Assembly: GCA_050248715.1 (NCBI GenBank)
Contig: JBFWRV010000025.1
Location: 802 to 64,801 of the forward strand
DNA length: 64,000 bases
DNA from: Hyphomicrobiaceae bacterium
GTDB taxonomy: Bacteria > Pseudomonadota > Alphaproteobacteria > Rhizobiales > Hyphomicrobiaceae
Direction of reading: 5' to 3'
Position 1 is the stretch's first letter; each line of letters starts with the position of its first letter. Positions 2,904-45,141 of the stretch are shown in pieces. A program made the translations under genes and the position numbers. The notes beneath the pieces were generated by a model. That model had not been told where the DNA came from, did not search any database, and saw nothing but the letters and a program-made list of their open reading frames with translations.

Positions 2904-3551
2904 CTATTTGCTGGTGCCGTCCAGATAGTCGAAAGCAAGGTGGAGCATAGACCTCAAGCCGATCATCAGCCCAGCCTCGTCGATCCGGAACCGCGGCGAG
3001 TGGTTCGGTGCGGCCCTCAGCGGAGGCGTGTCGGGCGCGGTGACGCCAACGAAGAAATACAGACCTGGCACCTGTCGGGCAAAGAACGAAAAGTCCTCCG
3101 AGCCAGTGACGCGAGGCGCCTCCAACAACCTGCCGGTGCCCGTGGCGCGCTTGAGAGTCGGGACCATGCGCTGTGTCAGTGGGATATTGTTCACCACCGG
3201 GATATACCCATCCATTCTCCACTCGACTTCGGCCTCGGCACCGCCGCTCTTGGGGCCTGGTTTGCCGCCTTTGAGAATGGCGACGACGCCCGTCTTCGCC
3301 ACCTTCTCGTGCACCTCGTAACCGAGCCGCTTCAGATGCTCCGCCACGAGCGATGATGTTCGCACCTCTCGATTGCCCAGCTCGGGGTTCTGGTGGATAT
3401 CGCGCCTCCGCGCGATCATTTGGCCCTCGATCGCCTTGGCCTCTCGCTCTATCGTATCGGCTACGCCCTGACCTGCAGCCGATAGCGTAGCCGCGGCAAG
3501 GAAGGCGGCTGTCACGAGGCCGAGCTTTCCGAAAGTGCGGGCAAGGTTCAC
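2904..3551 (-). pseudogene. M20D amidohydrolase (hippurate-hydrolase type) with in-frame loss of the catalytic core
   Basis: The N-terminal IHQNPELGNRE...VVAILKGGKPGPK is joined directly to the C-terminal ...GYIPVVNNIPLT...TGSEDFSFFARQVPGLYFFVGV...APNHSPRF. The region that normally carries the metal-binding HACGHD segment is missing. About 215 aa remain, versus the ~390-430 aa I recall as typical. Confidence 0.6.
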
Positions 3552-3842
3552 GGCATTTCTCCCAAAGTGCCACCCTCGTGCCGGGATGTCCGTTTCCGCC
3601 CAACTACCGAGGCAGCTGTATAAAACGCCGAAATTTCCAGCTGGGAGGCAGCATTGCCGGTGCTTCGCCATCCGTCGCGACAAGCTCGTTGCCAACGACA
3701 TCGCGTCGCCCGGCCCCGCATCGATCCGCGCCCGGTTGCGCTTTCATGAGCCCACGGCATAGTTGGCAAACGGGGCTATGCGGCAGAACCGCGGGGTTGA
3801 GCGAAGCGGCAAGCTACAAGCGCACCGCTCCGCCCAACACGC

Positions 3843-4103
3843 TCAAGCGCGCTTGAGCAATCCCACGACGAACAGGACAATAATGGCGCCGATCGCCGCA
3901 TTGATGACCTCGGCGACGTAGGTGCCGCCGATGTAGATGCCAAGGCCGGGCAGCAGCCAACCGGCAACGAACGCGCCGACGATGCCCACGATGATGTTGC
4001 CTATCAGGCCGAACCCACCCCCACGCATGAGCTGGCCGGCCAGCCAACCTGCGATCGCACCGATGATGAGAAAGATGATGAGAGCCTGAGCGTCCATTCG
4101 CAT
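3843..4103 (-). CDS. GlsB/YeaQ/YmgE transglycosylase-associated membrane protein
   Basis: 86 aa of glycine-zipper TM segments (IIGAIAGWLAGQLMRGGGFGLIGNIIVGIVGAFVAGWL). The rest of the 377-aa ORF is an upstream artefact. Confidence 0.8.
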   Translation of the reverse strand: MRMDAQALIIFLIIGAIAGWLAGQLMRGGGFGLIGNIIVGIVGAFVAGWLLPGLGIYIGGTYVAEVINAAIGAIIVLFVVGLLKRA

Positions 4104-4380
4104 GACGTCGCTCCTTCCCCATGGGCCGCAAGCATGTTGGGTCGCCCTGGCGCCAGGCGGCCCGCTTGACTGGCGCCGGGGCGGCTCCGCGATTCGTGAG
4201 GTTATCGCTTTTGCTTGGGCCCTACCACAACAGCGACGACGTCGGAGGGATAACGTGTTGCAGTACCGCACACTTCTGCGCTGCAGCATCCTGGCGTCCA
4301 TGCTAGGGTTTTGCGGCAGGTCGAAGGGCTGATGCCCCGGGGACAGCGGCACTGCGCCATAGGCAGGGGGAGAGATTGTC

Positions 4381-4641
4381 ATGGACCCAGTTGCGACCGC
4401 GTTGGTGCTCGCCGGCTTGGTGCTGCTCGGCTTCGTCCTATTTGTCCTGGTCTTCCGCTGGGTCTGGAACCGCACCGTACCGGCCGTGTTCGGTCTGCGG
4501 GAGATCACCTTCTGGCAGGCCGTCGGCCTCCTGTTCCTCGCCACGGTTCTGACCGGCGGGCATCGCGTCGTCACCACCGATATCACCAACCTGCCGAAGC
4601 GACTGGGGCCGTCGCCGGTGACGCTGGTGCCGAACGGTTGA
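4381..4641 (+). CDS. Small membrane protein, unknown function
   Basis: GGGGGAGAG Shine-Dalgarno upstream and two predicted TM helices. It lies just upstream of the CoA-transferase gene. Confidence 0.45.
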   Translation: MDPVATALVLAGLVLLGFVLFVLVFRWVWNRTVPAVFGLREITFWQAVGLLFLATVLTGGHRVVTTDITNLPKRLGPSPVTLVPNG

Positions 4642-4666
4642 TTTCTTGTCACGGGAAGGAGGGCAA

Positions 4667-5851
4667 ATGCCAGGCGTGCTCGAAGGCATCCGGGTGCTCG
4701 ATTTCGGGCGCTATATCGCCGGACCCTATTGTGGAGCCTTGCTCGCCGAGCAGGGCGCCGAGGTGATCCGCATCGAGAAGCGGCAGGGCAGCGAGGACCG
4801 CTATCAGGCGCCGGTGGCCGCGACGGGTGAGGGCGCGCTCTTCCTGCAGATGAACCGCAACAAGCTCGGGCTGACCCTCGATCCGATGCTGCCCGAAGGG
4901 CAGGAGGTCGTGCGCAGGCTCGTCGCCACTGCCGACGTCGTCGTCGCCAACCTTCCCCCGCAGACGCTCGAGGCAATGAAGCTCGACTATGCGAGCCTGA
5001 AGGCGGTCAAGCCGGACATCATCCTCACCACGGTCACGGCCTACGGTCGTGGTGGACCCTACAGCGAGCGGGTGGGTTTCGACGGCATCGGCCAGGTCAT
5101 GTCGGGTGCCGTCTACATGACGGGCACCGAGGATCAACCCTATCGCGCGCAGGTTCCCTGGGTGGATTTCGGCACGGCGCTGCACTGCGCCTTCGGCACC
5201 ATGGCTGCGCTGATGGCGCGCAAGGTCACCGGCAAGGGGCAGTGGGTGGAGGGCGCTCTGCTCGCCACTGCGGTCACGCTCGGCAACGCGCTTCTGATCG
5301 AGCAGGCCGTGATTGCGCCCAACCGCGTGCCGACAGGCAACCGGGGGCAGACGGCGGCGCCGGTCGACATCTTCCGCACCAAGGACGGCTGGATCCTGGC
5401 GCAGGTCATCGGCGATCCCCTCTATCGGCGCTGGGCCAGGCTGATGGGCGAGGAGCACTGGCTCACCGATCCGCGCTTCAAGGATGACATCTCCCGCGGC
5501 GACAACGGCGAGGTCATCAGCGAACGCATGGGCCGCTGGTGCGCCGAGCGGACGACGGCGGAGGCCCTGGAGATCCTGGCCAAGGCCAAGATTCCCTCCG
5601 GCCCCGTGCTGAAGCCGCAGCAGACGCTCGATGATCCCCACATCAAGGCGATGGGCTTCTTCCAGCCGATCGAGTTTCCGGGCGTGCCCAAGCCGGCGCC
5701 GATCGCCAAGGTCCCGGTCTGGCTGTCGGAGACGCCTGGCTCGATCCGCCGGCGCGCACCGACGCTCGGCGAGCACACCAACCAGATCCTGGCCGAGCTC
5801 GGCTACGACAAGAAGGCGATCGCCAAGCTGCGCGACAAGGGCGTGATCTAG
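4667..5851 (+). CDS. Family III CoA-transferase (CaiB/BaiF)
   Basis: MPGVLEGIRVLDFGRYIAGPYCGALLAEQGAEVIRIE N-terminus and GGAAGGAGGG RBS. Confidence 0.9.
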   Translation: MPGVLEGIRVLDFGRYIAGPYCGALLAEQGAEVIRIEKRQGSEDRYQAPVAATGEGALFLQMNRNKLGLTLDPMLPEGQEVVRRLVATADVVVANLPPQTLEAMKLDYASLKAVKPDIILTTVTAYGRGGPYSERVGFDGIGQVMSGAVYMTGTEDQPYRAQVPWVDFGTALHCAFGTMAALMARKVTGKGQWVEGALLATAVTLGNALLIEQAVIAPNRVPTGNRGQTAAPVDIFRTKDGWILAQVIGDPLYRRWARLMGEEHWLTDPRFKDDISRGDNGEVISERMGRWCAERTTAEALEILAKAKIPSGPVLKPQQTLDDPHIKAMGFFQPIEFPGVPKPAPIAKVPVWLSETPGSIRRRAPTLGEHTNQILAELGYDKKAIAKLRDKGVI

Positions 5852-5875
5852 GAAGCCCGAGGTCTGTTTCCTGGC

Positions 5876-5914
5876 ACCCCCACCCCCGCCCCCTCCCCGC
5901 AAGGGGGAGGGGAG
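5876..5914. repeat. GC-rich hairpin repeat (family C: CCCCTCCCC-GCAA-GGGGAGGGG)
   Basis: Perfect 9-bp stem. The same motif recurs at 45142, 47664, 55828 and 58361. Confidence 0.8.
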
Positions 5915-5941
5915 TACCGCTCAACGACAGGCCGGGCACGC

Positions 5942-7102
5942 ATGACCGAACCGATTGCCGCAGACAGTTTTCCCTACCTCGGCGAGGAGCACACGATGCT
6001 CCGCCACACGCTGCGGCGCTTCATCGCCGACCGCGTGCAGCCCTTCGCCGACGCCTGGGAGCAGCAGGGCTTCGTGCCGCGCGAGACCTTGCGCGAGATG
6101 GGCGCGCTCGGCCTCTTCGGCATGCGCTACGCACCCGAATATGGCGGCAGCGGCCTCGATACGCTCGCCAACGCCGTGCTCGCCGAGGAGCTGGGGCGCT
6201 CGACGTACGGGGGCTTCGCCGTCACGGTGCTCGTGCACACCGACATGGCCTCGCCGCATCTCTACAACGCCGGCACGCGCGAGCAGCTCGAGCGCTGGAT
6301 GCCCGACATCACCGCCGGCCGCAGGATCACCGCTGTCGCCATGACGGAAGCCGATGCCGGCTCCGACCTCGCCTCCATGCGCACCAGCGCCCGCAAGGTC
6401 GACGGCGGCTACGTTATCAACGGCGCCAAGATGTTCATCACCAACGGCGTGCACGGCGACCTCACTTTCGTCGCTGCCAAGTCGGGCGAGTCGGGCCGCA
6501 ACCGGCAGATGACGATGTTCGCCGTGGAGAAGGGAACACCCGGCTTCCGAGTAGCCCGCGCGCTCAAGAAGCAGGGGTGGCTCTCGAGCGACACGGCCGA
6601 GCTGGTGTTCGAGGACTGCTTCGTGCCGGAGGCGAACCTGCTGGGCCAGGAGGGCCAGGGCTTCTATGCGCTGGTCAAGAACCTGCAGAACGAGCGCATC
6701 GTGCTATCGGCCCAGGCGCTGGGCGAGGCCATGAAGGCGATCGAGCTGACGCTCGACTGGGTCAAGCAGCGCCGCGCGTTCGGGGCACCGCTGTGGGACA
6801 AGCAGGTGATCCGGCAGCGGCTGTCGATGCGGCTTGCCGAGGTCGAGGCGGCGCGCGCGCTCCTCTACAACACGGCCTGGCGCGACACGCGCAACGAGAA
6901 CGTCGTCAAAGAGGTGTCGATGCTGAAGGCGCTGGCGGGCACGCTCGTCAACGCCGTTATGTACGACTGCCTGCAGTTCCACGGCGGTATGGGCTACATG
7001 CGCGAGAGTGCGATCGAGCGCATGGCCCGCGACGCGCGCGTGCAGGCGATCGGCGGCGGCGCCACCGAGGTGATGCTGGACGAGGTGGCGAAGCGGATTT
7101 GA
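5942..7102 (+). CDS. Acyl-CoA dehydrogenase
   Basis: Full-length ACAD architecture with LQFHGGMGYMRES...RDARV and an LQNERIVLSAQALG helix-G Glu. Confidence 0.9.
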   Translation: MTEPIAADSFPYLGEEHTMLRHTLRRFIADRVQPFADAWEQQGFVPRETLREMGALGLFGMRYAPEYGGSGLDTLANAVLAEELGRSTYGGFAVTVLVHTDMASPHLYNAGTREQLERWMPDITAGRRITAVAMTEADAGSDLASMRTSARKVDGGYVINGAKMFITNGVHGDLTFVAAKSGESGRNRQMTMFAVEKGTPGFRVARALKKQGWLSSDTAELVFEDCFVPEANLLGQEGQGFYALVKNLQNERIVLSAQALGEAMKAIELTLDWVKQRRAFGAPLWDKQVIRQRLSMRLAEVEAARALLYNTAWRDTRNENVVKEVSMLKALAGTLVNAVMYDCLQFHGGMGYMRESAIERMARDARVQAIGGGATEVMLDEVAKRI

Positions 7103-9005: not shown

Positions 9006-10550
9006 TCATCCGTTGCGATCGACGGCAGCGGCTCCGGCCGATGCCGCGACCGGCGCGCGCCGCGCGGCGCGCTTGTCCAAGGCCCACGTGAAGTGCGGCC
9101 AGAGCAGCAAGATGACGCCGAGCGTCATGATCGAGCCGACCAGCCAGTTCGACCAGAAGATCGCGAGGCTGCCCTGGGAGCCCAGCATGGCCTGCCGGAA
9201 AGCCTCCTCGGCCTTGTCACCCAGCACGATCGCCAGCACCAGGGGCGGCAGCGGATAGCCGAGCTTCTGGAATACATAGCCGATGACGCCGAAGCCCAGC
9301 ATCATCCATACGTCGAACATGGAGTTGTGCACGGTGTAGGCGCCGACCGCGCAGATGACGAGGATGATCGGCGCGATGATCGAAAACGGCACGCGCAGGA
9401 TCGCGGCGAACAGCGGCACGCAGGTGAGCACCACGAACAGCCCGGCGATGTTGCCGAGGTACATGGAGGCGATCAGTCCCCAGACGAAGTCCTTCTGCTC
9501 GACGAACAGCATGGGGCCGGGCTGCAGGCCCCAGATCATGAGGCCGCCGAGCAGCACGGCCGCCGTCGGCGAGCCGGGGATGCCGAGCGTCAGCATGGGC
9601 AGCAGGGCGCTGGTGCCGGCGGCGTGGGCCGCCGTCTCGGGCGCGACCACGCCCTCGATCTCGCCCTTGCCGAAGTTGTCGCCGCGCCTGGAGAAGCGCT
9701 TGGCGAGGCCGTAGCTCATGAAGGAGGCCGGCGTGGCGCCGCCGGGTGTGATGCCCATCCAGCAGCCGATGATGCAGCTGCGGATCGAGGTCACCCAGTA
9801 ATTCAACAGCTGCTTCCAGGTCTGCAGGACGGCGTTGAGTCGGATCTTGGCGCTGTTGCCGGAAAACTTGAGGCCGCTTTCCATCGACGCCAGAATCTCG
9901 CCGATGCCGAACAGGCCGATCACGGCAATCAGGAAGTCGAAGCCGACCAGCAGCTGGTCGTAGCCGAACGTCATCCTGAGCGTGCCTGTCATCTTGTCGA
10001 GCCCGACGGACGCGAGGGCGAACCCCAGGCACATGGAAGCCAGCACCTTGAACGGCGAGCCGCGGCCCATGCCGACGAAGCTTGCGAACGTCAGGAAGAA
10101 CACGGAGAAGAATTCGGCGGGCCCGAACTGCAGGGCGAACTTGGCGATCAGGGGCGCCAGGAAGGTGATCAGAATCACCGCCACCAGGGCACCGACGAAC
10201 GAGGAGGTGAAGGCCGCCGTCAGCGCCTCGTCGGCGCGGCCCTTCTGCGCCATGGGGTGGCCGTCGAAGGTGGTGGCAACCGACCACGGCTCGCCCGGTA
10301 TGTTGAACAGAATTGAGGTGATGGCGCCGCCGAACAATGCGCCCCAGTAGATGCAGGAAAGCATGATGATGGCGGAAGTCGGCGGCATGGTGAACGTGAG
10401 CGGCAGCAGGATCGCCACTCCGTTGGCCCCGCCAAGGCCCGGCAGAACGCCGATGATGACGCCGAGCAGAATGCCGACCATCATCAAGGCCAGGTTGTAC
10501 CAGGACAGCGCGACTTTGAAGCCGCCGATCAGCGAGCCAATTTCTTCCAC
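9006..10550 (-). CDS. tctA: Tripartite tricarboxylate transporter large permease
   Basis: 514-aa polytopic protein with TctA-type motifs (GVLPGLGGANGVAILLP, GIPGSPTAAVLLG). GTG start. Confidence 0.9.
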   Translation of the reverse strand: MEEIGSLIGGFKVALSWYNLALMMVGILLGVIIGVLPGLGGANGVAILLPLTFTMPPTSAIIMLSCIYWGALFGGAITSILFNIPGEPWSVATTFDGHPMAQKGRADEALTAAFTSSFVGALVAVILITFLAPLIAKFALQFGPAEFFSVFFLTFASFVGMGRGSPFKVLASMCLGFALASVGLDKMTGTLRMTFGYDQLLVGFDFLIAVIGLFGIGEILASMESGLKFSGNSAKIRLNAVLQTWKQLLNYWVTSIRSCIIGCWMGITPGGATPASFMSYGLAKRFSRRGDNFGKGEIEGVVAPETAAHAAGTSALLPMLTLGIPGSPTAAVLLGGLMIWGLQPGPMLFVEQKDFVWGLIASMYLGNIAGLFVVLTCVPLFAAILRVPFSIIAPIILVICAVGAYTVHNSMFDVWMMLGFGVIGYVFQKLGYPLPPLVLAIVLGDKAEEAFRQAMLGSQGSLAIFWSNWLVGSIMTLGVILLLWPHFTWALDKRAARRAPVAASAGAAAVDRNG

Positions 10551-10812: not shown

Positions 10813-11520
10813 ATGTATGAGGCGCACGTGGCCGACGCCGATACACAGCTCAAGATTGCGCCGATCGGTGAGGGCCTGAGTCTCAAGGCACGTGCCTACG
10901 AGGCGCTCAAGACGGCCATCCTGAACATGAACATCTACGCCGACGATGCCCAGCTGCGTCTCGACGAGCGCGACCTTTCCCAGCGCTTCGGCGTCAGCCG
11001 GACACCGCTACGCGAGGCGCTTGCCCAGCTCGATCAGGAAGGACTGGTCAGGATTGTCGCGCGGCGCGGCATCTTCATCGTGCGCAAGACCAAGGCCGAG
11101 ATCCTGGACATGATCACGGTTTGGGCGGCGCTGGAGAGCATGGCGGCAAGGCTCGCGACCGAGCACGCGGACGCCGGCGAGATCGCCCGCCTGCACGCCC
11201 TGGTCGACCAGTTCTCGCAAGACGAGGTCGCCCGCAACATGGGCGAGTACTCCGAGGCCAACATCAAATTCCATCAGGCGATCATCGGTCTCGGCAAATG
11301 CCCGCTGATTGTGGAGATCAGCAACGGGCTCTTCTTCCACATGCGCGCTATCCGACAGCGGACCATCTTCGAGCAGGATCGGGCCCGGCGCTCGATCGTC
11401 GATCACAAGGAGATCGTGAGCGCGCTCGAAGCGCGAGACACCGAGCGGGCGGAGCGCCTCGTGCGCGAGCACACGCTGCGTCTGCGCGAGCACGTCGAGC
11501 GCTACGTGGAAATCGACTAG
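10813..11520 (+). CDS. GntR family transcriptional regulator (FadR/FCD subfamily)
   Basis: N-terminal wHTH (LDERDLSQRFGVSRTPLREALAQLDQEGLVRIVARRGIFIV) plus a C-terminal FCD-type helical domain. Confidence 0.85.
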   Translation: MYEAHVADADTQLKIAPIGEGLSLKARAYEALKTAILNMNIYADDAQLRLDERDLSQRFGVSRTPLREALAQLDQEGLVRIVARRGIFIVRKTKAEILDMITVWAALESMAARLATEHADAGEIARLHALVDQFSQDEVARNMGEYSEANIKFHQAIIGLGKCPLIVEISNGLFFHMRAIRQRTIFEQDRARRSIVDHKEIVSALEARDTERAERLVREHTLRLREHVERYVEID

Positions 11521-11665: not shown

Positions 11666-13402
11666 ATGTCGGCAACAGCACAAAGTATCGGCCCAAGCGC
11701 AACCGCAGGAGAGCGGGAGCTGACAGACGGGTTCCACCTCATCATCGATGCACTCAAGCTTAACGGCCTTACGACGATCTACGGAGTGCCGGGCATTCCG
11801 ATCACGGACTTCGGCCGCATGGCGCAGGCAGCGGGCATCCGTGTGCTCTCGTTCCGCCATGAGCAGAATGCCGGCTACGCCGCCTCGATCGCAGGTTTCC
11901 TGACGAAGAAGCCGGGCATCTGCCTCACGGTGTCTGCACCAGGCTTCCTCAACGGCTTGACCGCGCTGGCTCACGCCACCACGAACTGCTTCCCGATGAT
12001 CCTGATCTCCGGTTCGTCCGAGCGCGAGATCGTGGACTTGCAGCAGGGCGACTACGAGGAGATGGACCAGCTCGCCGTCGCCAAGCCGCTGTGCAAGGCC
12101 GCCTTCCGCGTGCTGCATGCGCAGGACATCGGCATCGGTCTGGCGCGCGCCATCCGGGCGGCGGTGTCAGGCCGGCCGGGCGGCGTCTATCTCGACCTGC
12201 CGGCCAAGCTGTTCGGCCAGGTGATGGACGCGGAGGCCGGCAGGAAGTCGCTCGTGAAGGTGATCGATGCGGCGCCCGCGCAAATCCCGGCACCCGATGC
12301 GGTGAAGCGCGCGCTCGATGTGCTCAAGGGCGCGCGGCGTCCCCTGATCATCCTCGGCAAGGGCGCGGCCTACGCGCAGGCCGACGGGGCCATACGCAGC
12401 CTGGTCGAGAAGAGCGGCATTCCCTTCTTGCCCATGAGCATGGGCAAAGGCCTGCTCCCCGACACGCATCCGCTCTGTGCCGGCGCGGCACGCTCCACCG
12501 TGCTGAGGGACAGCGACGTCGTCATGCTGATCGGGGCGCGCCTCAACTGGTTGCTCTCGCACGGCAAGGGCAAGAGCTGGGGCAGCGCCCCGAAGAAGTT
12601 CATCCAGATCGATATCGAGCCGAAGGAGATGGATTCCAACGTCGAGATCGCCGCGCCGGTCGTGGGCGACATCGGCTCCTGCGCGGGCGCGCTGCTCTCC
12701 GCCATGGGCGACAAGTGGCCGGCGGCCCCCGCCGACTGGGTCGGGGCGGTGGCCAGCAAGCGCGAGGAGAACGTGGCGAAGATGGCGCCGCGGCTGATGA
12801 ACAACAACTCGCCGATGGACTATCACGGCGCGCTCGGTGTCCTGCGCAGCGTCATCAAGGAGCGGCCCGATGCCATCCTGGTGAACGAGGGCGCCAACAC
12901 GCTCGATCTCGCGCGCGGCATCATCGACGTCTACCAGCCGAGGAAGCGCATCGACGTCGGCACCTGGGGCATCATGGGCATCGGCATGGGCTACGCCATC
13001 GCCGCCGCGGTGGAGACCGGAAAGCCGGTGCTCGCGGTGGAGGGCGACAGCGCCTTCGGCTTTTCCGGCATGGAGATCGAGACCATCTGCCGGTACAAAC
13101 TCCCCGTTTGCGTCGTCGTCTTCAACAACGACGGCATCTATCGCGGCACCGACGTCAACACGGCGAGCTCTGATCCGGCGACGACGGTGTTCGTCAAGGG
13201 GGCTCGCTACGACAGGATCATCGAAGCCTTCGGCGGGATCGGGGTCAATGCAACGTCCCCCGACGAGCTGCGGCGCGCGGTGAATCAGGCCATGGAGTCG
13301 GGCAAGCCGACTCTGATCAACGCCGTCATCGATCCGGCGGCCGGCAGCGAAAGCGGCCGCATCGGCAATCTCAATCCGCAAAGCGCGCTGAAGAAGAAAT
13401 AG
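11666..13402 (+). CDS. oxc: Oxalyl-CoA decarboxylase (ThDP-dependent)
   Basis: Colinear with the Oxalobacter Oxc as I recall it: [97 protein letters not shown]. Confidence 0.93.
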
Positions 13403-13412
13403 GGAGCGAGCA

Positions 13413-14684
13413 ATGAAAGCCCTGGAAGGCGTCAAGATCCTGGACTTCACGCACGTGCAGTCGGGACCGACGTGCACGCAGCTGCTGGCCTGGTTCGGCG
13501 CCGACGTGATCAAGGTGGAGCGGCCCGGCGTCGGCGATATCACGCGCGGCCAGCTGCAGGACGTGAAAGGCGCGGATTCGCTCTACTTCACGATGCTGAA
13601 CCACAACAAGCGCTCCATCACCATCGACAGCAAGAACAAGAAGGGGATGGAAATCCTGGAGCGCCTGGTGAAGACGTGCGACGTGCTGGTGGAAAACTTC
13701 GCGCCGGGTGCGCTCGATCGCATGGGGCTGACGTGGGAGCGCATCCAGCAGCTCAACCCGCGCATGATCTACGCGTCCGTGAAGGGTTTCGGCCCAGGCC
13801 CCTACGAGGACTGCAAGGTCTATGAGAACGTGGCGCAGTGTACGGGCGGCGCTGCATCCACCACGGGTTTCCGCGACGGTCCGCCGCTCGTTACCGGCGC
13901 CCAGATCGGAGACAGCGGCACGGGTTTGCACCTGGCGCTCGGCATCGTCACGGCGCTCTATCACCGCACCATGAGCGGCAAGGGTCAGCGCGTGAGCTGC
14001 GCCATGCAGGACGGCGTGCTCAATCTCGCGCGCGTCAAGATGCGCGACCAGCAGCGCCTCGCGCACGGGCCGCTCACCGAGTACAGCCAGTACGGGGAGG
14101 GCATCCCCTTCGGCAAGGCCGTGCCGCGCGCCGGCAACGATTCAGGCGGCGGCCAGCCCGGGCGCATCCTCAAGTGCAAGGGCTGGGAGAGCGATCCCGA
14201 CGCCTACATCTACTTCATCACCCAGGCGCCCGTATGGGAGGCGATCTGCGACGTGATCGGCGAGCCCGGCTGGAAGACGCATCCCGACTACGCCAAGCCG
14301 CCCGCGCGCCTGCCGAGGCTCAACGAGATCTTCGCCCGCATCGAGCAGTGGACTATGACCAAGGACAAGTTCGAGGCCATGGAGATCCTCAACAAGTACG
14401 ACATCCCCTGCGGGCCGATCCTGTCGATGAAGGAGCTCAGCGAGGACAAGTCGCTGCTTGCCACCGGCACGATGGTGGAGGTGGACCATCCCACGCGCGG
14501 CAAGTATCTGTCGGTCGGCAATCCCATCAAGCTGTCGGCCTCGGCGTCGGACGTGAAGCGCTCTCCGCTGCTCGGCGAGCACACCGACGAGGTACTGCGC
14601 GAGCTCGGATATTCAGCCGACGAGATCGCGGGCCTGGCGTCAGCCGGCGCGACCGCCGTGGTCAAGAAGCAGGCGGCGGAGTAA
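13413..14684 (+). CDS. frc: Formyl-CoA:oxalate CoA-transferase
   Basis: [77 protein letters not shown]. There is a 10-nt gap after oxc. Confidence 0.93.
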
Positions 14685-14696
14685 TCAGCTGGCGTG

Positions 14697-14812
14697 GACC
14701 CCGCCTTCGCGGGGTGACGTCGTGCTTGCGCAGACACGCGTCCACCCAAGGTGGAGTAGGGGATTGCAATGAGCTGACGTGTATCCCCGCCCTCGCGGGG
14801 GATGACGTCGGT
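14697..14812. repeat. Two hairpin repeats, family E (CCCCGCCxTCGCGGGG-(A)TGACGTCG)
   Basis: Copies at 14699-14722 and 14783-14810 inside the frc/formyltransferase spacer. A related hairpin is at 38306. Confidence 0.7.
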
Positions 14813-14839
14813 GCCAGGGATGGGTTTGGAGTGAGAGAC

Positions 14840-15769
14840 ATGCGTATCGTGGTGCACGGCCAGCAGGCGTTCGGTAAGGCGGTGCTGGAGGCGCTGCTCA
14901 AGCGCGGCGAGAATGTCGTCGCCGTCTACGTGGCGCCGGAGAAGCCCGGCGCGAAGGCCGATCCGCTGAAGGAGGCGGCGTTGGCAGCCAAATTGCCGGT
15001 CTACCAGCCGGCATCCTATCGCAAGCCCGAGGTGTGGGCCGAGTTCAAGGCGCTCAAGCCCGACCTGCAGGTGATGGCCTTCGTCACGCTGTTCGTGCCG
15101 GAGGAGTTCCTCAACATCCCCGCCCACGGCTCGATCCAGTATCACCCCTCGCTGCTGCCGGCCTATCGCGGCGCCAGCGCCATCAACTGGCCGATCATCA
15201 AGGGCGAAAAGGAAACCGGACTGTCGATCTTCTGGCCCGACAACGGCCTCGATACCGGCGACGTGCTCGTGCAGAAGAAGACGCCCATCTCCGACACGGA
15301 CACGCTGGGCACCGTCTACTTCGATCGCCTGTTCCCAATGGGTGTGGAGGCGATGCTGGAATCGGTCGACCTGGTGAAGGCCGGCAAGGCGCCGCGCATC
15401 AAGCAGGACGAGTCCAAGGCCACCTACGAGGGCCGCTGCGGCCCCGAGAATGCCAGGATCGACTGGGGCAAGCCGTGGGAGCAGATCGACCGGTTGATCC
15501 GCGGCTGCAATCCCGCGCCCGGTGCCTGGACGACGCTCGAGGGCAAGCAGCTCAAGATATTCGACGTGAAGCCACTGCCGGCGAAGGACCCCAAGGGCAT
15601 CGGCGGCAAGCTCGGCGAGATCGTCGCGGTGGAGGCTGACGGCTTCACGGTCGTCTGCGCTGACGGCCGCTTCAAAATCTCCCGCGTGCAACCCGCCGAC
15701 GGCAAGAAGATCGAGGCCGGCGAGTGGGCGAAGTCGGCGAGCCTCGCCGTCGGCGCGCGCTTCGGCTGA
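14840..15769 (+). CDS. Stand-alone formyltransferase-fold protein resembling the N-terminal hydrolase domain of 10-formyl-THF dehydrogenase
   Basis: [50 protein letters not shown] and [39 protein letters not shown]. The ATG at 14840 is the first sensible start; the upstream part of the 643-aa ORF is an out-of-frame readthrough of frc. Confidence 0.85.
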   Translation: [309 protein letters not shown]

Positions 15770-15856
15770 CGCCCACGTCTTCCAATTCACTACGAGAGCC
15801 GAGCGGCCCCAGCCGCTGGTACGCTGAAGTTCAACCGCAACAATCGGATAGTCGTC

Positions 15857-17554
15857 ATGCCCGCCTCGCAGCATCAACAGCCGAAATCCGACATCGAGAT
15901 TGCCCAGGCCGCCAGGATGCGGCCGATCGTGGACATCGCGCGCGAGAAGCTCGGCATCGCCGCGGAGAACCTGCAGCCCTACGGCCACTACAAGGCCAAG
16001 GTGTCCATGGACTACGTCAAATCGCTCAAGGGCAAGAAGGACGGCAAGCTGATCCTGGTGACGGCGATCTCGCCGACCCCGGCCGGCGAAGGCAAGACCA
16101 CGACGACGGTGGGCCTCACGGACGCGCTCAACGTCATCGGCAAGAAGGCGATGATGTGCCTGCGCGAGCCCTCGCTCGGGCCCTGCTTCGGCGTAAAGGG
16201 CGGCGCGGCGGGCGGCGGCTATGCCCAGGTCGTGCCGATGGAGGACATCAACCTCCACTTCACCGGCGACTTCCATGCCATTACCTCCGCGCACAACCTG
16301 CTCGCGGCGCTGGTGGACAATCACATCTACTGGGGCAATGCGCTGGGGCTCGACTCCCGCCGCGTTGCCTGGCGGCGCGTGATGGACATGAACGACCGCG
16401 CGCTGCGCGAGATCGTGTGCTCGCTTGGCGGCGTCGCCAACGGCTATCCGCGCGAAGCGGGCTTCGACATCACGGTGGCCTCCGAGGTGATGGCGATCTT
16501 CTGCCTCGCCCGGGATCTCGAGGATCTCAAGACGCGGCTCGGCAACATCATCGTCGGCTACACGCGTGACCGCAAACCCGTGCGTGCGAAGGAGCTCAAC
16601 GCGCATGGCGCCATGACGGCGCTGCTGAAGGATGCGATTGCGCCGAACCTCGTGCAGACGCTGGAAGGCACGCCCGCGTTCATTCACGGCGGCCCCTTCG
16701 CCAACATCGCGCATGGCTGCAACTCGGTGTCCGCCACCGCGACGGCGCTGAAGCTTGCCGACTATGTGGTCACGGAGGCCGGCTTCGGCGCCGACCTCGG
16801 CGCGGAGAAATTCCTGGACATCAAGTGCCGCAAGGCCGGCCTCAAGCCCGACTGTGTCGTCGTCGTCGCCACCATCCGCGCGCTCAAAATGCACGGCGGC
16901 GTCAAGAAGGAGGACTTGAAGAAGGAGAACCTCAAGGCGCTGGAAGCGGGCATGTCCAACCTGCAGCGCCACATCGAGAACATCAAGAAGTTCGGCCTGC
17001 CCGCGGTCGTGTCGATCAACCGCTTCTCGGCCGACACGGATGCCGAGATCGCGCTGGTGAAGGAGAGGTGCAAGTCGCTGGGCGTGGAGGCGCTGATGGC
17101 CGATCACTGGGCCATGGGCGGGGAGGGCGCGGCGGATGTTGCGCGCGCGGTCGTCAAGGTGATCGACGAGGGCAAGGCCAATCTGAAGCTGCTCTATGCC
17201 GACGACATGCCGCTGTTCGACAAGGTGCGCACGATCGCCAAGGAGATCTACCGCGCCGACGATGCCACGGCCGACAAGTCGGTGAAGGACCAGCTCAAGG
17301 CGTGGGAGGACATGGGCTTCGGCGAGCTGCCGGTCTGCATCGCCAAGACGCAGTATTCCTTCTCGACCAATCCCGATGCAAAGGGGGCGCCCACGGGCTT
17401 CAACATCCCGGTGCGGGAGGTGCGCCTGTCCGCGGGGGCGGAGTTCATCGTCGCGATCTGCGGTGAGATCATGACCATGCCCGGCCTGCCCAAGGTGCCG
17501 TCCGCCGATTCGATCGACGTCAACGCCGAAGGCAAGATCGTCGGGCTGTTCTGA
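15857..17554 (+). CDS. fhs: Formate--tetrahydrofolate ligase
   Basis: 565 aa with [19 protein letters not shown]-loop, [15 protein letters not shown] and [18 protein letters not shown]. Confidence 0.93.
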
Positions 17555-20241: not shown

Positions 20242-20892
20242 ATGAGTGCATCCGATGATGTTCTTGAGAGATTCAAGGGGCTCGCCACGCCGACCATTGC
20301 CAATGCGCTGGACGACGTGGGGTTCGAGGGCGTGCTCGTCGGCCTGACCCAGATGGTACCCGGCACGCGCTGCATCGGCCGTGCCGTGACCGTGCGTGAG
20401 ATCACGGGACGGCGCGGCGATTTCACCTCCGCGGACTTCAAGGTCGGCCAGATCATCGACGCGGCCAGAGCCGGTGACGTGCTCGTCATCGACAACGGCG
20501 GACACTGCGTCTCGACCTTCGGCGGGCTTGCCACCCTGGCGGCCAAGCTCAAGGGTGTCGCGGGCCTCGTGGCCGATACCGGCGTGCGCGACCGCGAGGA
20601 GATGATCGAGCACCAGTTTCCCGTTTTCGCCCGCCACATGACGCCCCTGACGGGGCGCTCGCGTCTGGCGATCGCGGCCATCAACGAGCCGGTGAGCTGC
20701 GGTGGCGTGCGCGTGCGGCCGGGCGACGTGATCGTCGCGGACGGTTCGGGCGTCGTTTGTGTGCCGGCCGAGCATGCCGCCGAGGTTGCGCGGCTGGCGC
20801 TCGGCTACGCCAACGACGACGCCGCGGCGGCGGTCGAACTCGCCAAGGGACTGACCTTCAGCGCTGCGATGGCCAAGTTCGCACGCATCTGA
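20242..20892 (+). CDS. RraA-family protein (putative 4-hydroxy-4-methyl-2-oxoglutarate aldolase/oxaloacetate decarboxylase type)
   Basis: PTIANALDDVG, GRAVTVREI, GDVLVIDNGG, FGGLATLAAKLKGVAGLVADTGVRD. AGGAGCAGG RBS. Confidence 0.8.
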   Translation: MSASDDVLERFKGLATPTIANALDDVGFEGVLVGLTQMVPGTRCIGRAVTVREITGRRGDFTSADFKVGQIIDAARAGDVLVIDNGGHCVSTFGGLATLAAKLKGVAGLVADTGVRDREEMIEHQFPVFARHMTPLTGRSRLAIAAINEPVSCGGVRVRPGDVIVADGSGVVCVPAEHAAEVARLALGYANDDAAAAVELAKGLTFSAAMAKFARI

Positions 20893-20918
20893 GCCGGACG
20901 AGGCGCGGAAAACCACGC

Positions 20919-22214
20919 GTGAAACACCCCGCCGGCCAGGATGACGGGTTGAAGGCCGAGGAGGCCGGGCGCTCGTTTCTCACGACGCTGGTGACGCTCA
21001 CCTTCGTCATGAATCTCATCGCGCGCGGAGTGCCCGAGACGTTCGCGGTGTTCCTGCTGCCAGTGCAGCAGGGTCTCGGCGTCTCGCGCTCCAGTATCAC
21101 GCTCACGTACTCCGTCTACATGCTCGCCTACGGGTTCTCGGGGCCCCTGGCCGGTCAGCTGATCGACCGCGGCGGCGCGCGCGCCGCCTACGGCTTCGGA
21201 CTTGCGTGCCTGGGGCTCGGCTACTTCCTGGCAGGCTTCTCGACCGAGCTGTGGCACTACATGCTGACCGTCGGCTTCCTCGGCGGGCTCGGCGCCGCCG
21301 CTCTCGGCATGATCGCGGCCTCCGCGCTGCTGAGCCGCTGGTTCACCAGCCGCATCGGCTCGATCATGTCCCTGCCTTACGCCGCGATCGGCGCCGGCAT
21401 GCTGGTGCTGCCGCCGCTGACCCAGATGCTGCTCGGCGTCTATGACTGGCGTGTCACGCACATGATCCTCGGCGTCGGCGTCCTGGCGCTGCTGCCTTTG
21501 GTGATGCTGCTGCCGCTCGGCCGCATCTCGGCGGGTTCAAAGGCGTGGCGGGCGCTGCGCATCAGCGCGTCAGGTGCGCCCACGAACCCCTGGACGATCG
21601 CGGCGACGTTGCGCACCAGCGCGTTCTGGGGCCTTTTCCTCGCCTATCTCTCCACGGCCGTGGCTGCCTACAGCGTCGTGCCCCATTCGGTTGCCTACCT
21701 GGTCGAGCAGGGCTTCGACCGGCAGCTGGCGGCGAATGCCTTTGGCCTCGCCGGCATGCTCTCGGCGGTCGGCATCGTCGCCGTGGGATGGCTCTCGGAC
21801 CGCTTCGGCCGCCGGCAGACGGCGACGCTCACGTACCTGTCGACCATTACAGGCATCGCCGCGCTGTCTCTCATTTCGATCTGGCCGTCGCTGGCGCTCG
21901 TCTACATGTTCGTTCTCTTCTTCGGCCTCGTGCAGGGTGCACGTGGGCCCATCATCGTCGCCATGGTGGCACGGATGTTTCCGGGCGGGGTCGGGGTGGT
22001 TTACGGGACGCTGTCGGTCGCGCAGGGTGTGGGTGCGGCGTTCGGATCGTGGGCCTCGGGGCTGCTCTACGAGCTGACCGGGAACTACAGGGCGTCGTTC
22101 ATGCTGGCCATCTGCGGGGCGCTGGTCGGGCTTTCCTCGTTCTGGCTCGTCCGCAGCCTGCGCGAGGAGCGGGTGGCGGCGCTGCCCGCCTCCGAGCCGG
22201 CGCGAGCACCGTGA
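20919..22214 (+). CDS. MFS transporter
   Basis: 12-TM profile, with a DRGGAR-type loop after TM2 and DRFGRR after TM8. A GTG start at 20919 is proposed. Confidence 0.8.
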   Translation: MKHPAGQDDGLKAEEAGRSFLTTLVTLTFVMNLIARGVPETFAVFLLPVQQGLGVSRSSITLTYSVYMLAYGFSGPLAGQLIDRGGARAAYGFGLACLGLGYFLAGFSTELWHYMLTVGFLGGLGAAALGMIAASALLSRWFTSRIGSIMSLPYAAIGAGMLVLPPLTQMLLGVYDWRVTHMILGVGVLALLPLVMLLPLGRISAGSKAWRALRISASGAPTNPWTIAATLRTSAFWGLFLAYLSTAVAAYSVVPHSVAYLVEQGFDRQLAANAFGLAGMLSAVGIVAVGWLSDRFGRRQTATLTYLSTITGIAALSLISIWPSLALVYMFVLFFGLVQGARGPIIVAMVARMFPGGVGVVYGTLSVAQGVGAAFGSWASGLLYELTGNYRASFMLAICGALVGLSSFWLVRSLREERVAALPASEPARAP

Positions 22215-23609: not shown

Positions 23610-24140
23610 TTACTTCTCGCTCACCTCGCGCGGGGGATGGCAGGGCTGTGCCTCGACCTCGCAGCGCGTGAAGGTCTGGCCCAGCGTCGTCACCCCGCCC
23701 TCCTTGATCGAGGAGCGCGAGCACGTGTAGTTGACGTGGCGGGCGTTGTTGAGGTCCATGAACTTCTCGCCCAGGTGGAAGCGGATCGTGCCGGCCCACG
23801 AATCGTTGGCGGCCTTCTTGGCGCCGTCGAGGGTCAGATGTTGATCGCCCACGGCCCGTCGCATTTCGCGGCAGGTGGGTCCGTCCTCGTACCCCTCGCG
23901 GCGAACATAGCTGTAGACGCGAGTTCTGCTGTGGGGCCGCGCGGCCTGTCGCGGGCGGTAGCAGCGGCCGTCGCTGCGGCAGTAAACACGCGCATAGTGC
24001 GGTCTGCCGTCGCGATGGGTGCCGACGCGGCGGACCTCCCAGTTGCCCGATTCGGTGCTTTGCGCCGGCTCCGGCAGGAGCAATGCCGCCACTGCGGCAG
24101 CCACCAACCAAGCCGTGCGTTCCCAACCCCTGCGTGTCAT
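23610..24140 (-). CDS. Secreted Cys-containing protein, unknown function (paralogous C-terminal module to 19844-20143)
   Basis: Signal-like MTRRGWERTAWLVAAAVAALLLPEPAQS. C-terminal TCREMRRAVGDQ...GAKKAANDSW...FMDLNNARHVNYTC...RCEVEAQPC. Confidence 0.55.
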   Translation of the reverse strand: MTRRGWERTAWLVAAAVAALLLPEPAQSTESGNWEVRRVGTHRDGRPHYARVYCRSDGRCYRPRQAARPHSRTRVYSYVRREGYEDGPTCREMRRAVGDQHLTLDGAKKAANDSWAGTIRFHLGEKFMDLNNARHVNYTCSRSSIKEGGVTTLGQTFTRCEVEAQPCHPPREVSEK

Positions 24141-24429
24141 GTGTGCCCTCCACGCTCCCAACGGTGCATGCGGGGCGGATGCTATACAATTCGAGAGTCG
24201 TCTCAACCGACTGCCCCCGCAATCCACAGGAGACACGCGTGTCTGGCGCCGCGAGAGGCGTTCCCGCCACGATGCCGCCGATTTGCGTGGAAAGGCGGGC
24301 CAATTCAGCGAAGTCATTGCGACGCGCGGGGCTGCGTCGCCGGGCCCGCATAGGCGGCAGCCTCTGTCGCGTTGCCGCCCGGCGCGAGCGATGCTTTCAT
24401 TGGCCGACACGCACGCCGGGGACTCCTCC

Positions 24430-26571
24430 ATGCCTGATCTTGGCGCCTTGCTTTGGCCGCGCACGGTTGCGCTCATCGGCGCGTCGGCAGATGCGGAGAG
24501 CCTGCGCGGTCGGATCTTCAACGTCATGCGGGGCCACGCGTTTGCCGGCACGCTCTATCCCGTGAGCCGCAGCAGCGCCGAGGTGCTGGGCGTCAAGGCC
24601 TACCCCTCCGTTGCCGACCTGCCGCAACCGGCCGATCTCGCCGTCATCATCATCCCCGCGGAGCACGTGCCGGCGGAGCTGGAGCGCTGCGGCAAGGCGG
24701 GCGTGCGCTCGGCGGTGATCCTGAGCTCGGGGTTCGCGGAGGCCTCGGGCGACTCAGGGACGAGCCTGCAGGCCGAGATCCGTGCCGTGGCCAGGCGCTA
24801 CGATATGGCCGTGTCAGGCCCGAACTCGGAGGGCTTCGCCAACATCGCCGCCAACCTGTGCCCGACCTTCAGCCCGGCCATGGAGGCGAGCGAGCGTCCG
24901 CTGGTGCCGGCAGGCCGCCCGCGCCGGCAGATGGCGGTGGCGGCGCAGAGCGGCGGTATGGGCTTTGCCTTCTTCGACCACGGCCGCGCCAAGGAGCTGT
25001 CGTTCCGCTACATCGTAACGACCGGCAACGAGGCATGCCTCGAGGCGCTCGACTTCGCCGAGTTCATCATCGACGAGGGCAAGACCGATGCGCTGCTTCT
25101 GCTGCTCGAGGACGTCAAGACGCCCGAGACGTTCCGGCGCGTTGCCGAGAAGGCGCTGAAGGCCGGCACGCCTCTCATCGTCAACAAGATCGGCCAGTCG
25201 GATGCGGGCGTGCGCGCGGCAGCCTCCCATACGGCCGCGCTCGCCGGCGCCTACCGCGCCTACCAGGCGATGTTTGCGCGCTACGGCATCATCGAGGGCG
25301 GCGATATCTCGGAGATGGTCGACATGGCCGCCGGCTTCCTGGCCTGGCGCGACAGGCTGCCGCTGGGGCGGCGGGTCGGCATCTGCACGGCCTCGGGTGG
25401 CGGCGGGGGCTGGATGGCGGACGCCTGCACGGCCGCGGGGCTGGAGGTTCCCGTGCTCGATGACGCAACACGCCGCCGCATCGACGAGCATCTGCCGTCC
25501 TATGGCACCTCGCAGAACCCCGTCGATGCCACGGCGCAGGCCGTCTCCAGGATCGGCTATGCGGGCCTCGCCCGGCTGATGCTCCCTTCGCCCGAGATCG
25601 ACGGCATCGTCGTGGTCATGACGGGACGCAACGCACACAACCTGGAGCGCCAGAAGGAAGCCCTGTCCAGCCTCGCCGAGACCGCGGAGAAGCCAATCCT
25701 GATGTGGAGCTACACGCTACCGGCGCAGCGCTCGGTGCAGATCGTCGGCGAGGCCGGCTACCCCCTCTATACCGACATCGGTAATTGCGCGCGCACCATG
25801 CGGGCGATGGCGGACCACCGCGCCGTGCGCGAGCGCTTCCTGCGTCCAATCGAGGTCACGAGCCGATACGCCGCGGACAAGGAGACGGCGCAGCGGCTCC
25901 TGGCGGTGGCCGGGCCGGCGCTCAGCGAGTGGGAGGCGCGGCCCATCCTCGCCGCCTACGGCATCGGCACGAATTCGGCCGGCACGCTGGCGACCTCGGC
26001 GGCGTCGGCAAGTGCGGCGGCCGAGGCCATCGGCGGCCCTGTTGCGCTCAAGGTGCAGTCGCCCGACATCCTGCACAAGACGGAAGCCCAGGCCGTGACG
26101 CTGAACGTGCCACCCCGGGACGTCGCCGCCGGCTACGAGCGCGTGCTGGCCAATGCACGCCGACATGTGCCCGGCGCGCGCATCCCGGGCGTGCTGGTGC
26201 AGCCGATGGCGCCCTCCGGGCGCGAGGTGATCCTCGGCATCAAACGCGACGCCACGTTCGGCCCGTTGCTGATGGTGGGGCTCGGCGGCGTCGCGGTGGA
26301 GGTGCTGAAGGACGTGGCCCTGGCGCCGGTGCCGCTGAGCACCGCCGAAGCAGGCGCGCTTGTTGCGCAACTCAAGGGCGCGGCCTTGCTCGAGGCGCAT
26401 CGCGGCGCGCCACCGGCCGATGTCGATGCCCTGGTCGAGCTGATGGTCCGGCTTGGCCGCTTCGCCGCCGACCATGCCGAGACGGTCGCCGAGATCGATC
26501 TCAACCCTGTGCTGGTGCACGCGAAGGGCAAGGGCGTGTCGGTCGTGGATGCCTTGATCTTGAAGGGGTAG
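24430..26571 (+). CDS. ADP-forming acyl-CoA synthetase (fused CoA-binding/ligase-CoA + ATP-grasp domains)
   Basis: VALIGAS...YPVS CoA-binding N-terminus, GPNSEGF, and a C-terminal ATP-grasp_5-like part (ALKVQSPDILHKTEA). 713 aa from the ATG at 24430. Confidence 0.85.
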   Translation: MPDLGALLWPRTVALIGASADAESLRGRIFNVMRGHAFAGTLYPVSRSSAEVLGVKAYPSVADLPQPADLAVIIIPAEHVPAELERCGKAGVRSAVILSSGFAEASGDSGTSLQAEIRAVARRYDMAVSGPNSEGFANIAANLCPTFSPAMEASERPLVPAGRPRRQMAVAAQSGGMGFAFFDHGRAKELSFRYIVTTGNEACLEALDFAEFIIDEGKTDALLLLLEDVKTPETFRRVAEKALKAGTPLIVNKIGQSDAGVRAAASHTAALAGAYRAYQAMFARYGIIEGGDISEMVDMAAGFLAWRDRLPLGRRVGICTASGGGGGWMADACTAAGLEVPVLDDATRRRIDEHLPSYGTSQNPVDATAQAVSRIGYAGLARLMLPSPEIDGIVVVMTGRNAHNLERQKEALSSLAETAEKPILMWSYTLPAQRSVQIVGEAGYPLYTDIGNCARTMRAMADHRAVRERFLRPIEVTSRYAADKETAQRLLAVAGPALSEWEARPILAAYGIGTNSAGTLATSAASASAAAEAIGGPVALKVQSPDILHKTEAQAVTLNVPPRDVAAGYERVLANARRHVPGARIPGVLVQPMAPSGREVILGIKRDATFGPLLMVGLGGVAVEVLKDVALAPVPLSTAEAGALVAQLKGAALLEAHRGAPPADVDALVELMVRLGRFAADHAETVAEIDLNPVLVHAKGKGVSVVDALILKG

Positions 26572-41681: not shown

Positions 41682-41698
41682 GCGATGGCTCGCCCGCT

Positions 41699-45057: not shown

Positions 45058-45141
45058 GGCGCAGCGGGCGCGTCGGCCTTGGCCTCTCTTAACGGGGAGA
45101 GGTAGGGTCGGGAAAGGCTCCCGCCCTCAGCTCTTGGTTTA

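Follow-up and report, generated by a model that had tools for sequence, protein, structure and literature searches.

Which reaction does a formyltransferase-fold protein catalyse when its gene lies between those for formyl-coenzyme A (formyl-CoA) transferase and formate--tetrahydrofolate ligase? The question is raised by a stretch of 64,000 nt from a Hyphomicrobiaceae bacterium (contig JBFWRV010000025.1, assembly GCA_050248715.1), the whole of which is referred to here as the window. The protein, designated FT, comprises 309 amino acids (aa), carries the Pfam domains Formyl_trans_N and Formyl_trans_C and is encoded on the + strand at positions 14840-15769. Upstream of it and in the same direction lie oxc (11666-13402), encoding oxalyl-CoA decarboxylase, the products of which are formyl-CoA and CO2, and frc (13413-14684), encoding formyl-CoA transferase. 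It is followed, also on the + strand, by fhs (15857-17554), encoding the ligase that forms 10-formyl-tetrahydrofolate (10-formyl-THF) from formate in an ATP-dependent reaction. These three genes exceeded the cutoffs of the curated equivalog models by wide margins (oxc, TIGR03254, 1020.6 bits vs a cutoff of 739.4; frc, TIGR03253, 714.9 vs 504.2; fhs, NF010030, 949 vs 652). The first-pass annotation of this DNA had suggested that FT shuttles formyl groups between CoA and THF; the gene positions, the common direction and the spacers of 10 nt (oxc-frc), 155 nt (frc-FT) and 87 nt (FT-fhs) on which it built were all confirmed from the open reading frames (ORFs), and both peptide stretches that it quoted for FT were found verbatim in the translation. 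The ATG start codon of FT is preceded by GGAG, and the N-terminus MRIVVHGQ lined up with those of homologues. Its sequence and predicted fold place FT, as a stand-alone protein, in the ALDH1L1-N-terminal-like branch of the Fmt-fold formyltransferases, and it probably moves formyl groups between THF and CoA.

The family assignment was made by PDB sequence search, BLASTP against reference proteins, scoring with curated models, a neighbour-joining (NJ) tree, and an AlphaFold model that was searched with Foldseek. The best PDB sequence matches of FT were the hydrolase domains of human, rat and zebrafish ALDH1L1, the 10-formyl-THF dehydrogenase FDH (213-220 bits, E about 1e-63), with 2bw0 at the top (220 bits, E 3e-64). 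Structures of the methionyl-tRNA formyltransferase Fmt followed at 142-167 bits (5uai, 167; E. coli 1fmt, 162), ArnA scored about 115-121 bits, and HypX (6j1h) was a weak match (52 bits, E 4e-13). By BLASTP, FT was 42% identical to the N-terminal domain of human ALDH1L1 over its whole length, compared with 34% for E. coli Fmt and 31% for Sinorhizobium meliloti Fmt, in agreement with the earlier impression that its core motifs are closer to the ALDH1L1 hydrolase domain than to Fmt. The motifs HPSLLP, SAINW and GLDTGD are common to FT and ALDH1L1. The residues highlighted in the structures of the zebrafish N-terminal FDH domain (Nt-FDH), namely Phe89, His106, Ser108, Arg114, Asp138, Asp142 and Tyr200 (PMC4388273), were all kept in FT, where they correspond to F85, H102, S104, R110, D134, D138 and Y196; the catalytic His and Asp that had been reported as retained are thus His102 and Asp138.

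Sequences obtained by exhaustively searching 1.8 billion cluster representatives were scored against the references and placed in an NJ tree. FT and bacterial proteins at 35-50% identity formed a clade apart from Fmt, and both the tree and the bit scores placed the eukaryotic ALDH1L1 N-terminal domains inside this bacterial clade. The family comparison proposed in the first-pass annotation therefore groups FT with the ALDH1L1 N-terminal domain and not with Fmt. The AlphaFold (AF2) model of FT had a pLDDT (predicted local distance difference test) score of 93.9, and the top five Foldseek matches were all Nt-FDH structures (best E 2e-36); HypX was matched with an E-value of 5e-20 and a template modelling (TM) score of 0.69. 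The fold search was nevertheless discarded as a family discriminator, since Nt-FDH came first by E-value, yet Fmt structures reached equal or higher TM-scores (about 0.9) against the model.

The N-terminal domain of ALDH1L1/FDH (2bw0, 1s3i, 4qpd), the best match of FT in both sequence and fold, has the same two-subdomain architecture. In the eukaryotic ALDH1L1, however, it is fused to a 4'-phosphopantetheine carrier domain and an aldehyde dehydrogenase (ALDH) domain, whereas FT is a bacterial, stand-alone protein of two formyltransferase domains only, encoded inside an oxalate/formyl-CoA operon, with no acyl carrier protein or ALDH gene in its neighbourhood. The thiol that FT uses would, unlike that of ALDH1L1, presumably be free CoA, and the formyl group would not be oxidised to CO2. 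One further residue was considered as a marker of an frc-linked subgroup. Cys200 of FT (window 15437-15439), in a YEGRC loop, lies between the residues that contact the folate glutamate tail in zebrafish Nt-FDH, and the corresponding residue is Gln in ALDH1L1 and Leu or Ile in Fmt. Of 155 bacterial members of the clade, 149 have the Cys, irrespective of gene context, and it was therefore rejected as a specificity marker.

In public annotation FT and its relatives appear as methionyl-tRNA formyltransferases, a name that judging from the sequence is very probably wrong. FT does share with Fmt the Pfam domains, the fold, the folate donor and the His/Asp pair, and the Fmt model TIGR00460 was its best NCBIfam match, but at 179.1 bits the score lay below the cutoff of 201.5. 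In Fmt an insertion in loop 1, with basic residues, contacts the acceptor stem of the initiator tRNA (2FMT complex), and a catalytic Asn is typical of amine formyltransferases such as Fmt and PurN. In the alignment, 5-6 residues of this insertion were deleted in FT (PEKPGA------KADPL) compared with E. coli PDRPAGRGKKLMPSPV, a deletion common to FT, ALDH1L1 and the homologue annotated fmt_2 on a plasmid of the Paracoccaceae strain La 6. The Asn of the E. coli Fmt set N108/H110/D146 is replaced by Gln100 in FT, in which His102 and Asp138 are present; the position is occupied by Ile104 in ALDH1L1 and by Gln or Cys across the FT clade, so that FT and ALDH1L1 both lack the catalytic Asn. The gene context differed as well. 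FT homologues were never seen beside def, while the S. meliloti Fmt gene stands in a def-fmt-truA context and def-fmt fusions fell in the Fmt clade. The designation fmt_2 for the La 6 homologue implies a second copy; in the window itself no second Fmt-like gene was found.

FT might still be a second methionyl-tRNA formyltransferase, or an amine N-formyltransferase acting on a sugar nucleotide or an amino acid, recruited for the ample supply of 10-formyl-THF in cells growing on oxalate. The two-domain architecture, the shared fold, the model match and the public name would all fit such an enzyme; the sub-cutoff score, the deleted tRNA-recognition insertion, the missing Asn and the separation from def and from the def-fmt clade speak against it, as does the lack of sugar-nucleotide or amine-pathway genes nearby, and we regard it as quite improbable. 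Features of PurU were likewise missing: FT has no ACT domain, scored 58.9 bits with the PurN model (cutoff 150) and possesses an Fmt-type C-terminal domain. The ArnA model NF005998 gave 143.6 bits vs a cutoff of 777; FT carries no fused decarboxylase domain, and no arn genes were found near it.

Conservation of the gene order was investigated in two samples of loci. The own-clade sample comprised the first 80 genome loci, species-level relatives from Xanthobacteraceae-type metagenome-assembled genomes (MAGs) with 86-95% identity in FT; the wider sample comprised 87 further loci with 44-92% identity, obtained from a metagenome scan and individual look-ups. In the own-clade loci the order oxc-frc-FT-fhs was essentially universal wherever the contig allowed, and all four genes were near full length in 56 of the 80. 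Median identities across loci were 90% for FT, 87% for oxc, 83% for fhs and 80% for frc, values that are biased because the loci had been chosen by FT similarity. Among diverse loci, a bona fide frc stood immediately upstream of FT in 45 of the 78 that could be evaluated, including 19 of the 25 loci in the 50-56% identity bin, and the gap between the two genes was often 0-8 nt, with some overlapping. When FT sequences were grouped at 65% identity, 21 clusters were obtained, at least eight of which contained frc-FT pairs; in a ninth, on a short contig, the C-terminus of a CoA-transferase ended 16 nt upstream of FT. The linkage that the first-pass annotation had noticed is thus conserved well beyond this genome. 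The presence of fhs went with that of frc: of the 39 loci with an upstream frc, 24 had fhs after FT, vs 2 of the 31 loci without it. In one large clade the order was oxc-frc-FT, followed by unrelated signalling genes.

The arrangement regulator-oxc-frc-FT-fhs seen in the window was also found in a Kiloniellales MAG (FT 56% identical) and, as GntR-oxc-frc-FT-fhs, on the plasmid of strain La 6, a marine member of the Rhodobacterales (FT 47% identical). On this plasmid, fhs is followed by genes for a universal-stress protein, a Tct transporter, a ketopantoate-reductase-like protein and glyA2, and ppc and sucCD-like genes lie upstream of the operon. TctCBA genes flank the oxc-frc-FT-fhs operon also in loci L082 and L089, and a GntR/FCD regulator precedes oxc not only on the La 6 plasmid and in the Kiloniellales MAG but also in L092. 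The thiamine diphosphate (ThDP) enzyme encoded 5' of frc was in part of the loci a true Oxc (995 bits in L152). In L137 and L092 it was instead a PRK05858/2-hydroxyacyl-CoA-lyase-like (HACL-like) protein, which suggests a different substrate releasing formyl-CoA into the same downstream module. HACL-like ThDP genes were located at L092:2863-4620, L137:2823-4526 and L093 about 2961-4580, and their products were 24-27% identical to the Oxc of the window. As the upstream enzyme may be either Oxc or HACL-like, what these loci share is formyl-CoA and not oxalate, and the constant partner of FT is a pair of enzymes making and using formyl-CoA.

Two loci differed from these arrangements. At L138:3601-9715, FT comes directly after a family III CoA-transferase that is only 34% identical to Frc, and three ORFs resembling subunits of benzoyl-CoA reductase/2-hydroxyacyl-CoA dehydratase of the double-cubane type come next, so that the formyltransferase seems to stand here in an anaerobic-type context. 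At L088:7488-13916, in a gammaproteobacterial MAG, the gene ahead of FT (59% identity) encodes a thioesterase of the 4HBT family, and those after it encode an MmgE/PrpD protein, GFA and a class II aldolase. No frc was found in range, but a true oxc (77%) is located 3 kb downstream.

How could one enzyme serve both partners? We consider it slightly better than an even bet, from the sequence comparisons and the gene order, that FT is a reversible 10-formyl-THF:CoA formyltransferase, which together with Fhs would most plausibly prime or replenish formyl-CoA for Oxc and Frc; that it moves formyl groups between THF and CoA, in whichever direction, appears slightly more probable again. The reaction would be 10-formyl-THF + CoA-SH <-> THF + formyl-CoA, with the His102/Ser104/Asp138 site shifting the formyl group between N10 of the folate and the phosphopantetheine thiol, and FT would thereby join the formyl-CoA pool of Oxc/Frc to the one-carbon (C1) pool on THF that is fed by Fhs. 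In the priming direction, Fhs would use formate, the abundant product, and ATP to form 10-formyl-THF, FT would hand the formyl group on to CoA, and Frc would activate oxalate with the resulting formyl-CoA. The net reaction of Fhs and FT would be formate + ATP + CoA -> formyl-CoA, with THF as catalytic carrier, which would explain the dedicated fhs alongside frc-FT; in operons without fhs, the housekeeping pool of 10-formyl-THF could be the formyl donor.

Such a route would meet a need of the Oxc/Frc cycle, which is autocatalytic and cannot start from zero thioester. At steady state, the input of formyl-CoA should have to equal the drain of oxalyl-CoA or formyl-CoA; where oxalyl-CoA is withdrawn or formyl-CoA hydrolysed, the cycle runs down unless formyl-CoA is refilled at an equal rate. 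Fhs, FT and Frc would constitute an ATP-driven starter and anaplerotic route that replaces the thioester lost to hydrolysis of formyl-CoA or to the withdrawal of oxalyl-CoA for assimilation. In E. coli, the cycle has a dedicated primer in YfdE, an acetyl-CoA:oxalate CoA-transferase (PMC3720670). YfdE, like FT, is an enzyme of an oxc/frc locus, and it gives the first thioester to the autocatalytic cycle, but it would be a functional analogue only, having an unrelated fold (family III CoA-transferase) and drawing on acetyl-CoA, whereas the route through FT would draw on the folate C1 pool, or formate and ATP.

A thiol as acceptor agrees with what has been published on related enzymes. In full-length ALDH1L1 the formyl group goes to the thiol of the 4'-phosphopantetheine arm (PMC8748788), as the first-pass annotation had stated. 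Its further remark that no enzyme was characterised for the exchange of formyl between formyl-CoA and THF is out of date. LctF, encoded in the lactacystin cluster of Streptomyces lactacystinicus, was reported in 2025 to form formyl-CoA from 10-formyl-THF and CoA in vitro, as detected by liquid chromatography-mass spectrometry, and is about 32% identical to Fmt (PMC11730586). From its published description, LctF is a stand-alone Fmt-like protein, as is FT, and performs the reaction proposed here; unlike FT, it belongs to secondary metabolism, where it feeds the loading module of a polyketide synthase, and is unlinked to frc, oxc or fhs. For the N-domain of HypX, the transfer of formyl from 10-formyl-THF to CoA was proposed in 2019 (PMC6802093). 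This domain of HypX/HoxX (6j0p), which acts in the synthesis of the CO ligand of [NiFe]-hydrogenase, has an Fmt-like fold, THF binding and the conserved His and Asp in common with FT; it differs in being fused to a crotonase-like decarbonylase domain, in holding CoA as a prosthetic group and in having Asp instead of Ser in the triad. Every characterised relative thus appears to pass formyl to a pantetheine-type thiol.

A member of the FT clade itself was found in a hydrogenase setting. This protein of 291 aa (P0228) had a higher score with Nt-FDH (195 bits) than with Fmt (about 100 bits), and was much more distant from the canonical HypX N-domain (63 bits). Its locus (L173:3-2968, Logan SRR12113385) reads hypD (C-terminal end)-hypE-FT-crotonase with gaps of 2-9 nt, and hypE was recognised by TIGR02124 (323 bits). 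The formyltransferase and the crotonase look like a HypX analogue split into two proteins, of which the formyltransferase half is ALDH1L1-like.

Since the closest relatives of known structure go by the name of hydrolase domain, and since all residues relevant to hydrolysis are kept (PMC4388273), FT could also be a thiol-assisted 10-formyl-THF hydrolase, a stand-alone Nt-FDH or PurU analogue that releases formate and returns free THF as a relief valve under a flood of formate; the occurrence of wider-clade members without frc would fit as well. The first-pass annotation had raised a plain hydrolase opposite Fhs as its alternative. It is less likely, since co-transcription with Fhs would result in a futile, ATP-burning cycle, and the isolated Nt-FDH "hydrolase" needs beta-mercaptoethanol (PMC4388273), the 4'-phosphopantetheine arm being the physiological acceptor (PMC8748788). 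A hydrolase would also leave unexplained the tight, often translationally coupled adjacency of frc and FT across clades, and FT lacks the ACT domain of PurU and a PurN-like architecture. We therefore consider this function improbable.

The same close spacing, with overlaps or gaps of 0-8 nt that suggest stoichiometric co-production, might indicate an acceptor other than free CoA, either a protein-bound 4'-phosphopantetheine, as in the carrier domain of ALDH1L1 (PMC8748788), or Frc itself in a channelled complex. No carrier-protein gene was found in or near the operons inspected, and HypX and LctF use free or bound CoA; of all the possibilities weighed here, this one seems to us the least probable.

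The direction of transfer is a separate matter, and here the proposal of the first-pass annotation stood only in part: CoA as the thiol partner is the most coherent choice, but the characterised relatives all run from THF to the thiol (PMC11730586, PMC6802093, PMC8748788). Priming is favoured over draining, although taken by itself it falls somewhat short of an even chance, with the remainder of the THF/CoA transfer being bidirectional or undecided. Draining, i.e. formyl-CoA + THF -> 10-formyl-THF + CoA, would let C1 units from Oxc or HACL-like enzymes enter the folate pool while bypassing free formate and Fhs. The structural and linkage evidence is identical for both directions, and draining is probably the thermodynamically favoured one. 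The operons of La 6 and the Kiloniellales MAG stand among serine-cycle-type genes (glyA2, ppc, sucCD/mtk-like and ketopantoate-reductase-like), where 10-formyl-THF would be wanted for assimilation, and the window holds other possible activators of oxalate, an adenosine diphosphate (ADP)-forming acyl-CoA synthetase (24019-26571) and extra family III CoA-transferases. Against this, Frc needs each formyl-CoA for the next oxalyl-CoA, diversion would cost an ATP-equivalent activation, and the fhs of the operon would then be a parallel and not a coupled activity. Draining was judged rather unlikely, though less so than hydrolysis.

The advantage that had been claimed for draining, a saving of the ATP spent by Fhs, does not hold up. 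Frc uses one formyl-CoA per oxalate and Oxc returns one, so that a closed cycle should yield no net gain, and each thioester diverted to THF would need an ATP-equivalent replacement. With a flux f from formyl-CoA to THF and a flux r from oxalyl-CoA into assimilation, oxalate would have to be activated independently at r + f, at an ATP-equivalent cost.

Several observations weigh against a priming THF:CoA formyltransferase. Hydrolysis of a thioester is more exergonic than that of 10-formyl-THF, so that the priming transfer is probably an uphill one, which Frc and Oxc would have to pull. To our knowledge, many oxalotrophs, E. coli and Oxalobacter among them, cope without such a gene. The serine-cycle-type neighbours on La 6 and in the Kiloniellales MAG fit the draining direction as well, and the relationship to the canonical HypX N-domain is a distant one (52 bits). 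About half of the sequence clusters of the wider clade were not beside frc, and their neighbours were heterogeneous, with genes for major facilitator superfamily (MFS) proteins, glutathione S-transferase, a luciferase-like oxidoreductase, formylglutamate amidohydrolase and serine hydroxymethyltransferase next to such orphan FT genes; CoA therefore need not be the acceptor throughout the FT family. Among the long representatives there was no fusion of FT with Frc, nor any with Fhs or CoA-binding domains; these long proteins were def-fmt fusions, Arn-like GT2-FT fusions or truncated ALDH1L1.

A wider version of the priming reading can be put forward tentatively. Fhs, FT and Frc might form a folate-mediated route from formate over formyl-CoA to oxalyl-CoA, in which Fhs and FT would act as a natural two-enzyme "formyl-CoA synthetase" and which would enable a net withdrawal of oxalyl-CoA. 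The FT clade might then be a general C1 bridge between folate and CoA, of the type ancestral to the ALDH1L1 N-terminal domain, which would also serve systems of HACL-like lyases with Frc and the split HypX-like, CO-forming pair.

The transfer of formyl between THF and CoA is not itself new, being known from the two other settings of LctF and HypX. The novelty seems to lie in its context, in that an ALDH1L1-like enzyme, widespread and mis-annotated, is tied to formyl-CoA transferase in primary catabolism; a literature search of incomplete coverage found no publication on a formyltransferase in oxc/frc/fhs clusters. At least 8000 matches to FT were present in the protein collections, from soil and marine sources, in clusters of hundreds to thousands of members, and thousands of sequences now called methionyl-tRNA formyltransferase would need a new name. 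In models of oxalotrophy, Oxc and Frc count as self-sufficient. The start of the cycle, and its balance when oxalyl-CoA is reduced to glyoxylate, would be explained by a source or sink of formyl-CoA linked to folate, and estimates of oxalate turnover in soil would be affected in consequence. Synthetic formyl-CoA C1 pathways, based on carboligation by HACL or Oxc, have no good natural route from formate to formyl-CoA, and Fhs with FT would be one. The clade would also place the origin of the ALDH1L1 N-terminal domain in a bacterial context.

A gene for a GntR/FCD-family transcriptional regulator (10828-11520, + strand; Pfam GntR and FCD) lies directly 5' of oxc. Further upstream, on the - strand and thus divergent from the operon, is a gene for a TctA-type subunit of a tripartite tricarboxylate transporter (9049-10550; Pfam TctA), a candidate for the uptake of oxalate or dicarboxylates. 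Downstream of fhs follows an unrelated recQ. Searches of the oxc-frc-FT-fhs cluster for terminator-like sites on the + strand and for Rfam families gave no match, and the flanking genes are unrelated or divergent; the unit is therefore taken to be the GntR gene with oxc-frc-FT-fhs.

The 155-nt spacer between frc and FT (14685-14839, + strand) was considered as a site for a riboswitch or attenuator, which was rejected because neither an Rfam family nor a terminator-like site on the + strand was present; the only match in the Rfam search, a small nucleolar RNA at E 0.46, was taken as chance. Inspection of the sequence revealed two copies of a GC-rich hairpin, formed by the palindrome CCCCGCC(T/C)TCGCGGGG at 14699-14714 and 14785-14800, each copy being followed by TGACGTCG and neither by a T-tract. 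The motif had three matches in the window vs 0.12 expected. As it recurs in related operons, where it lies in further spacers between genes (oxc-frc and FT-fhs, e.g. in L014, L026 and L078) and on either strand, the palindromes are read as elements resembling repetitive extragenic palindromes (REP-like) and not as regulators.

Further genes of C1 and acyl-CoA metabolism were observed in the window. A second Oxc/HACL-like ThDP enzyme, 41% identical to the oxc product, is encoded at 43399-45057; it passed model NF006721 (577 vs 557 bits) and failed TIGR03254 (534 vs 739). Within the region 40701-47554, its gene is flanked by those for luciferase-like oxidoreductases (40701-41681 and 41983-43074) and a family III CoA-transferase (46277-47554), and the enzyme is a possible further source of formyl-CoA in the same genome. 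The ADP-forming acyl-CoA synthetase mentioned above is an ORF of 850 aa located 6.5 kb downstream of fhs, and its best partial matches were 4-hydroxybutyrate/acetate-CoA ligases. Upstream of the operon, at 4646-7102, genes for a family III CoA-transferase (31% identical to Frc) and an acyl-CoA dehydrogenase were found. The synthetase and this CoA-transferase are candidates for an alternative acid activation and as such bear on the direction of the formyl transfer. An MFS transporter with a weak likeness to lactate and oxalate/formate antiporters (TIGR00890, 98 bits, below cutoff) is encoded at 20757-22214, some 3 kb beyond the end of the operon and separated from it by recQ and an RraA-like gene. 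The closest relatives of the window were Xanthobacteraceae/Pseudolabrys-type soil MAGs, and contig JBFWYH010000047.1 (assembly GCA_050186605.1), which matches the window from position 9049 on, encodes an identical FT protein.

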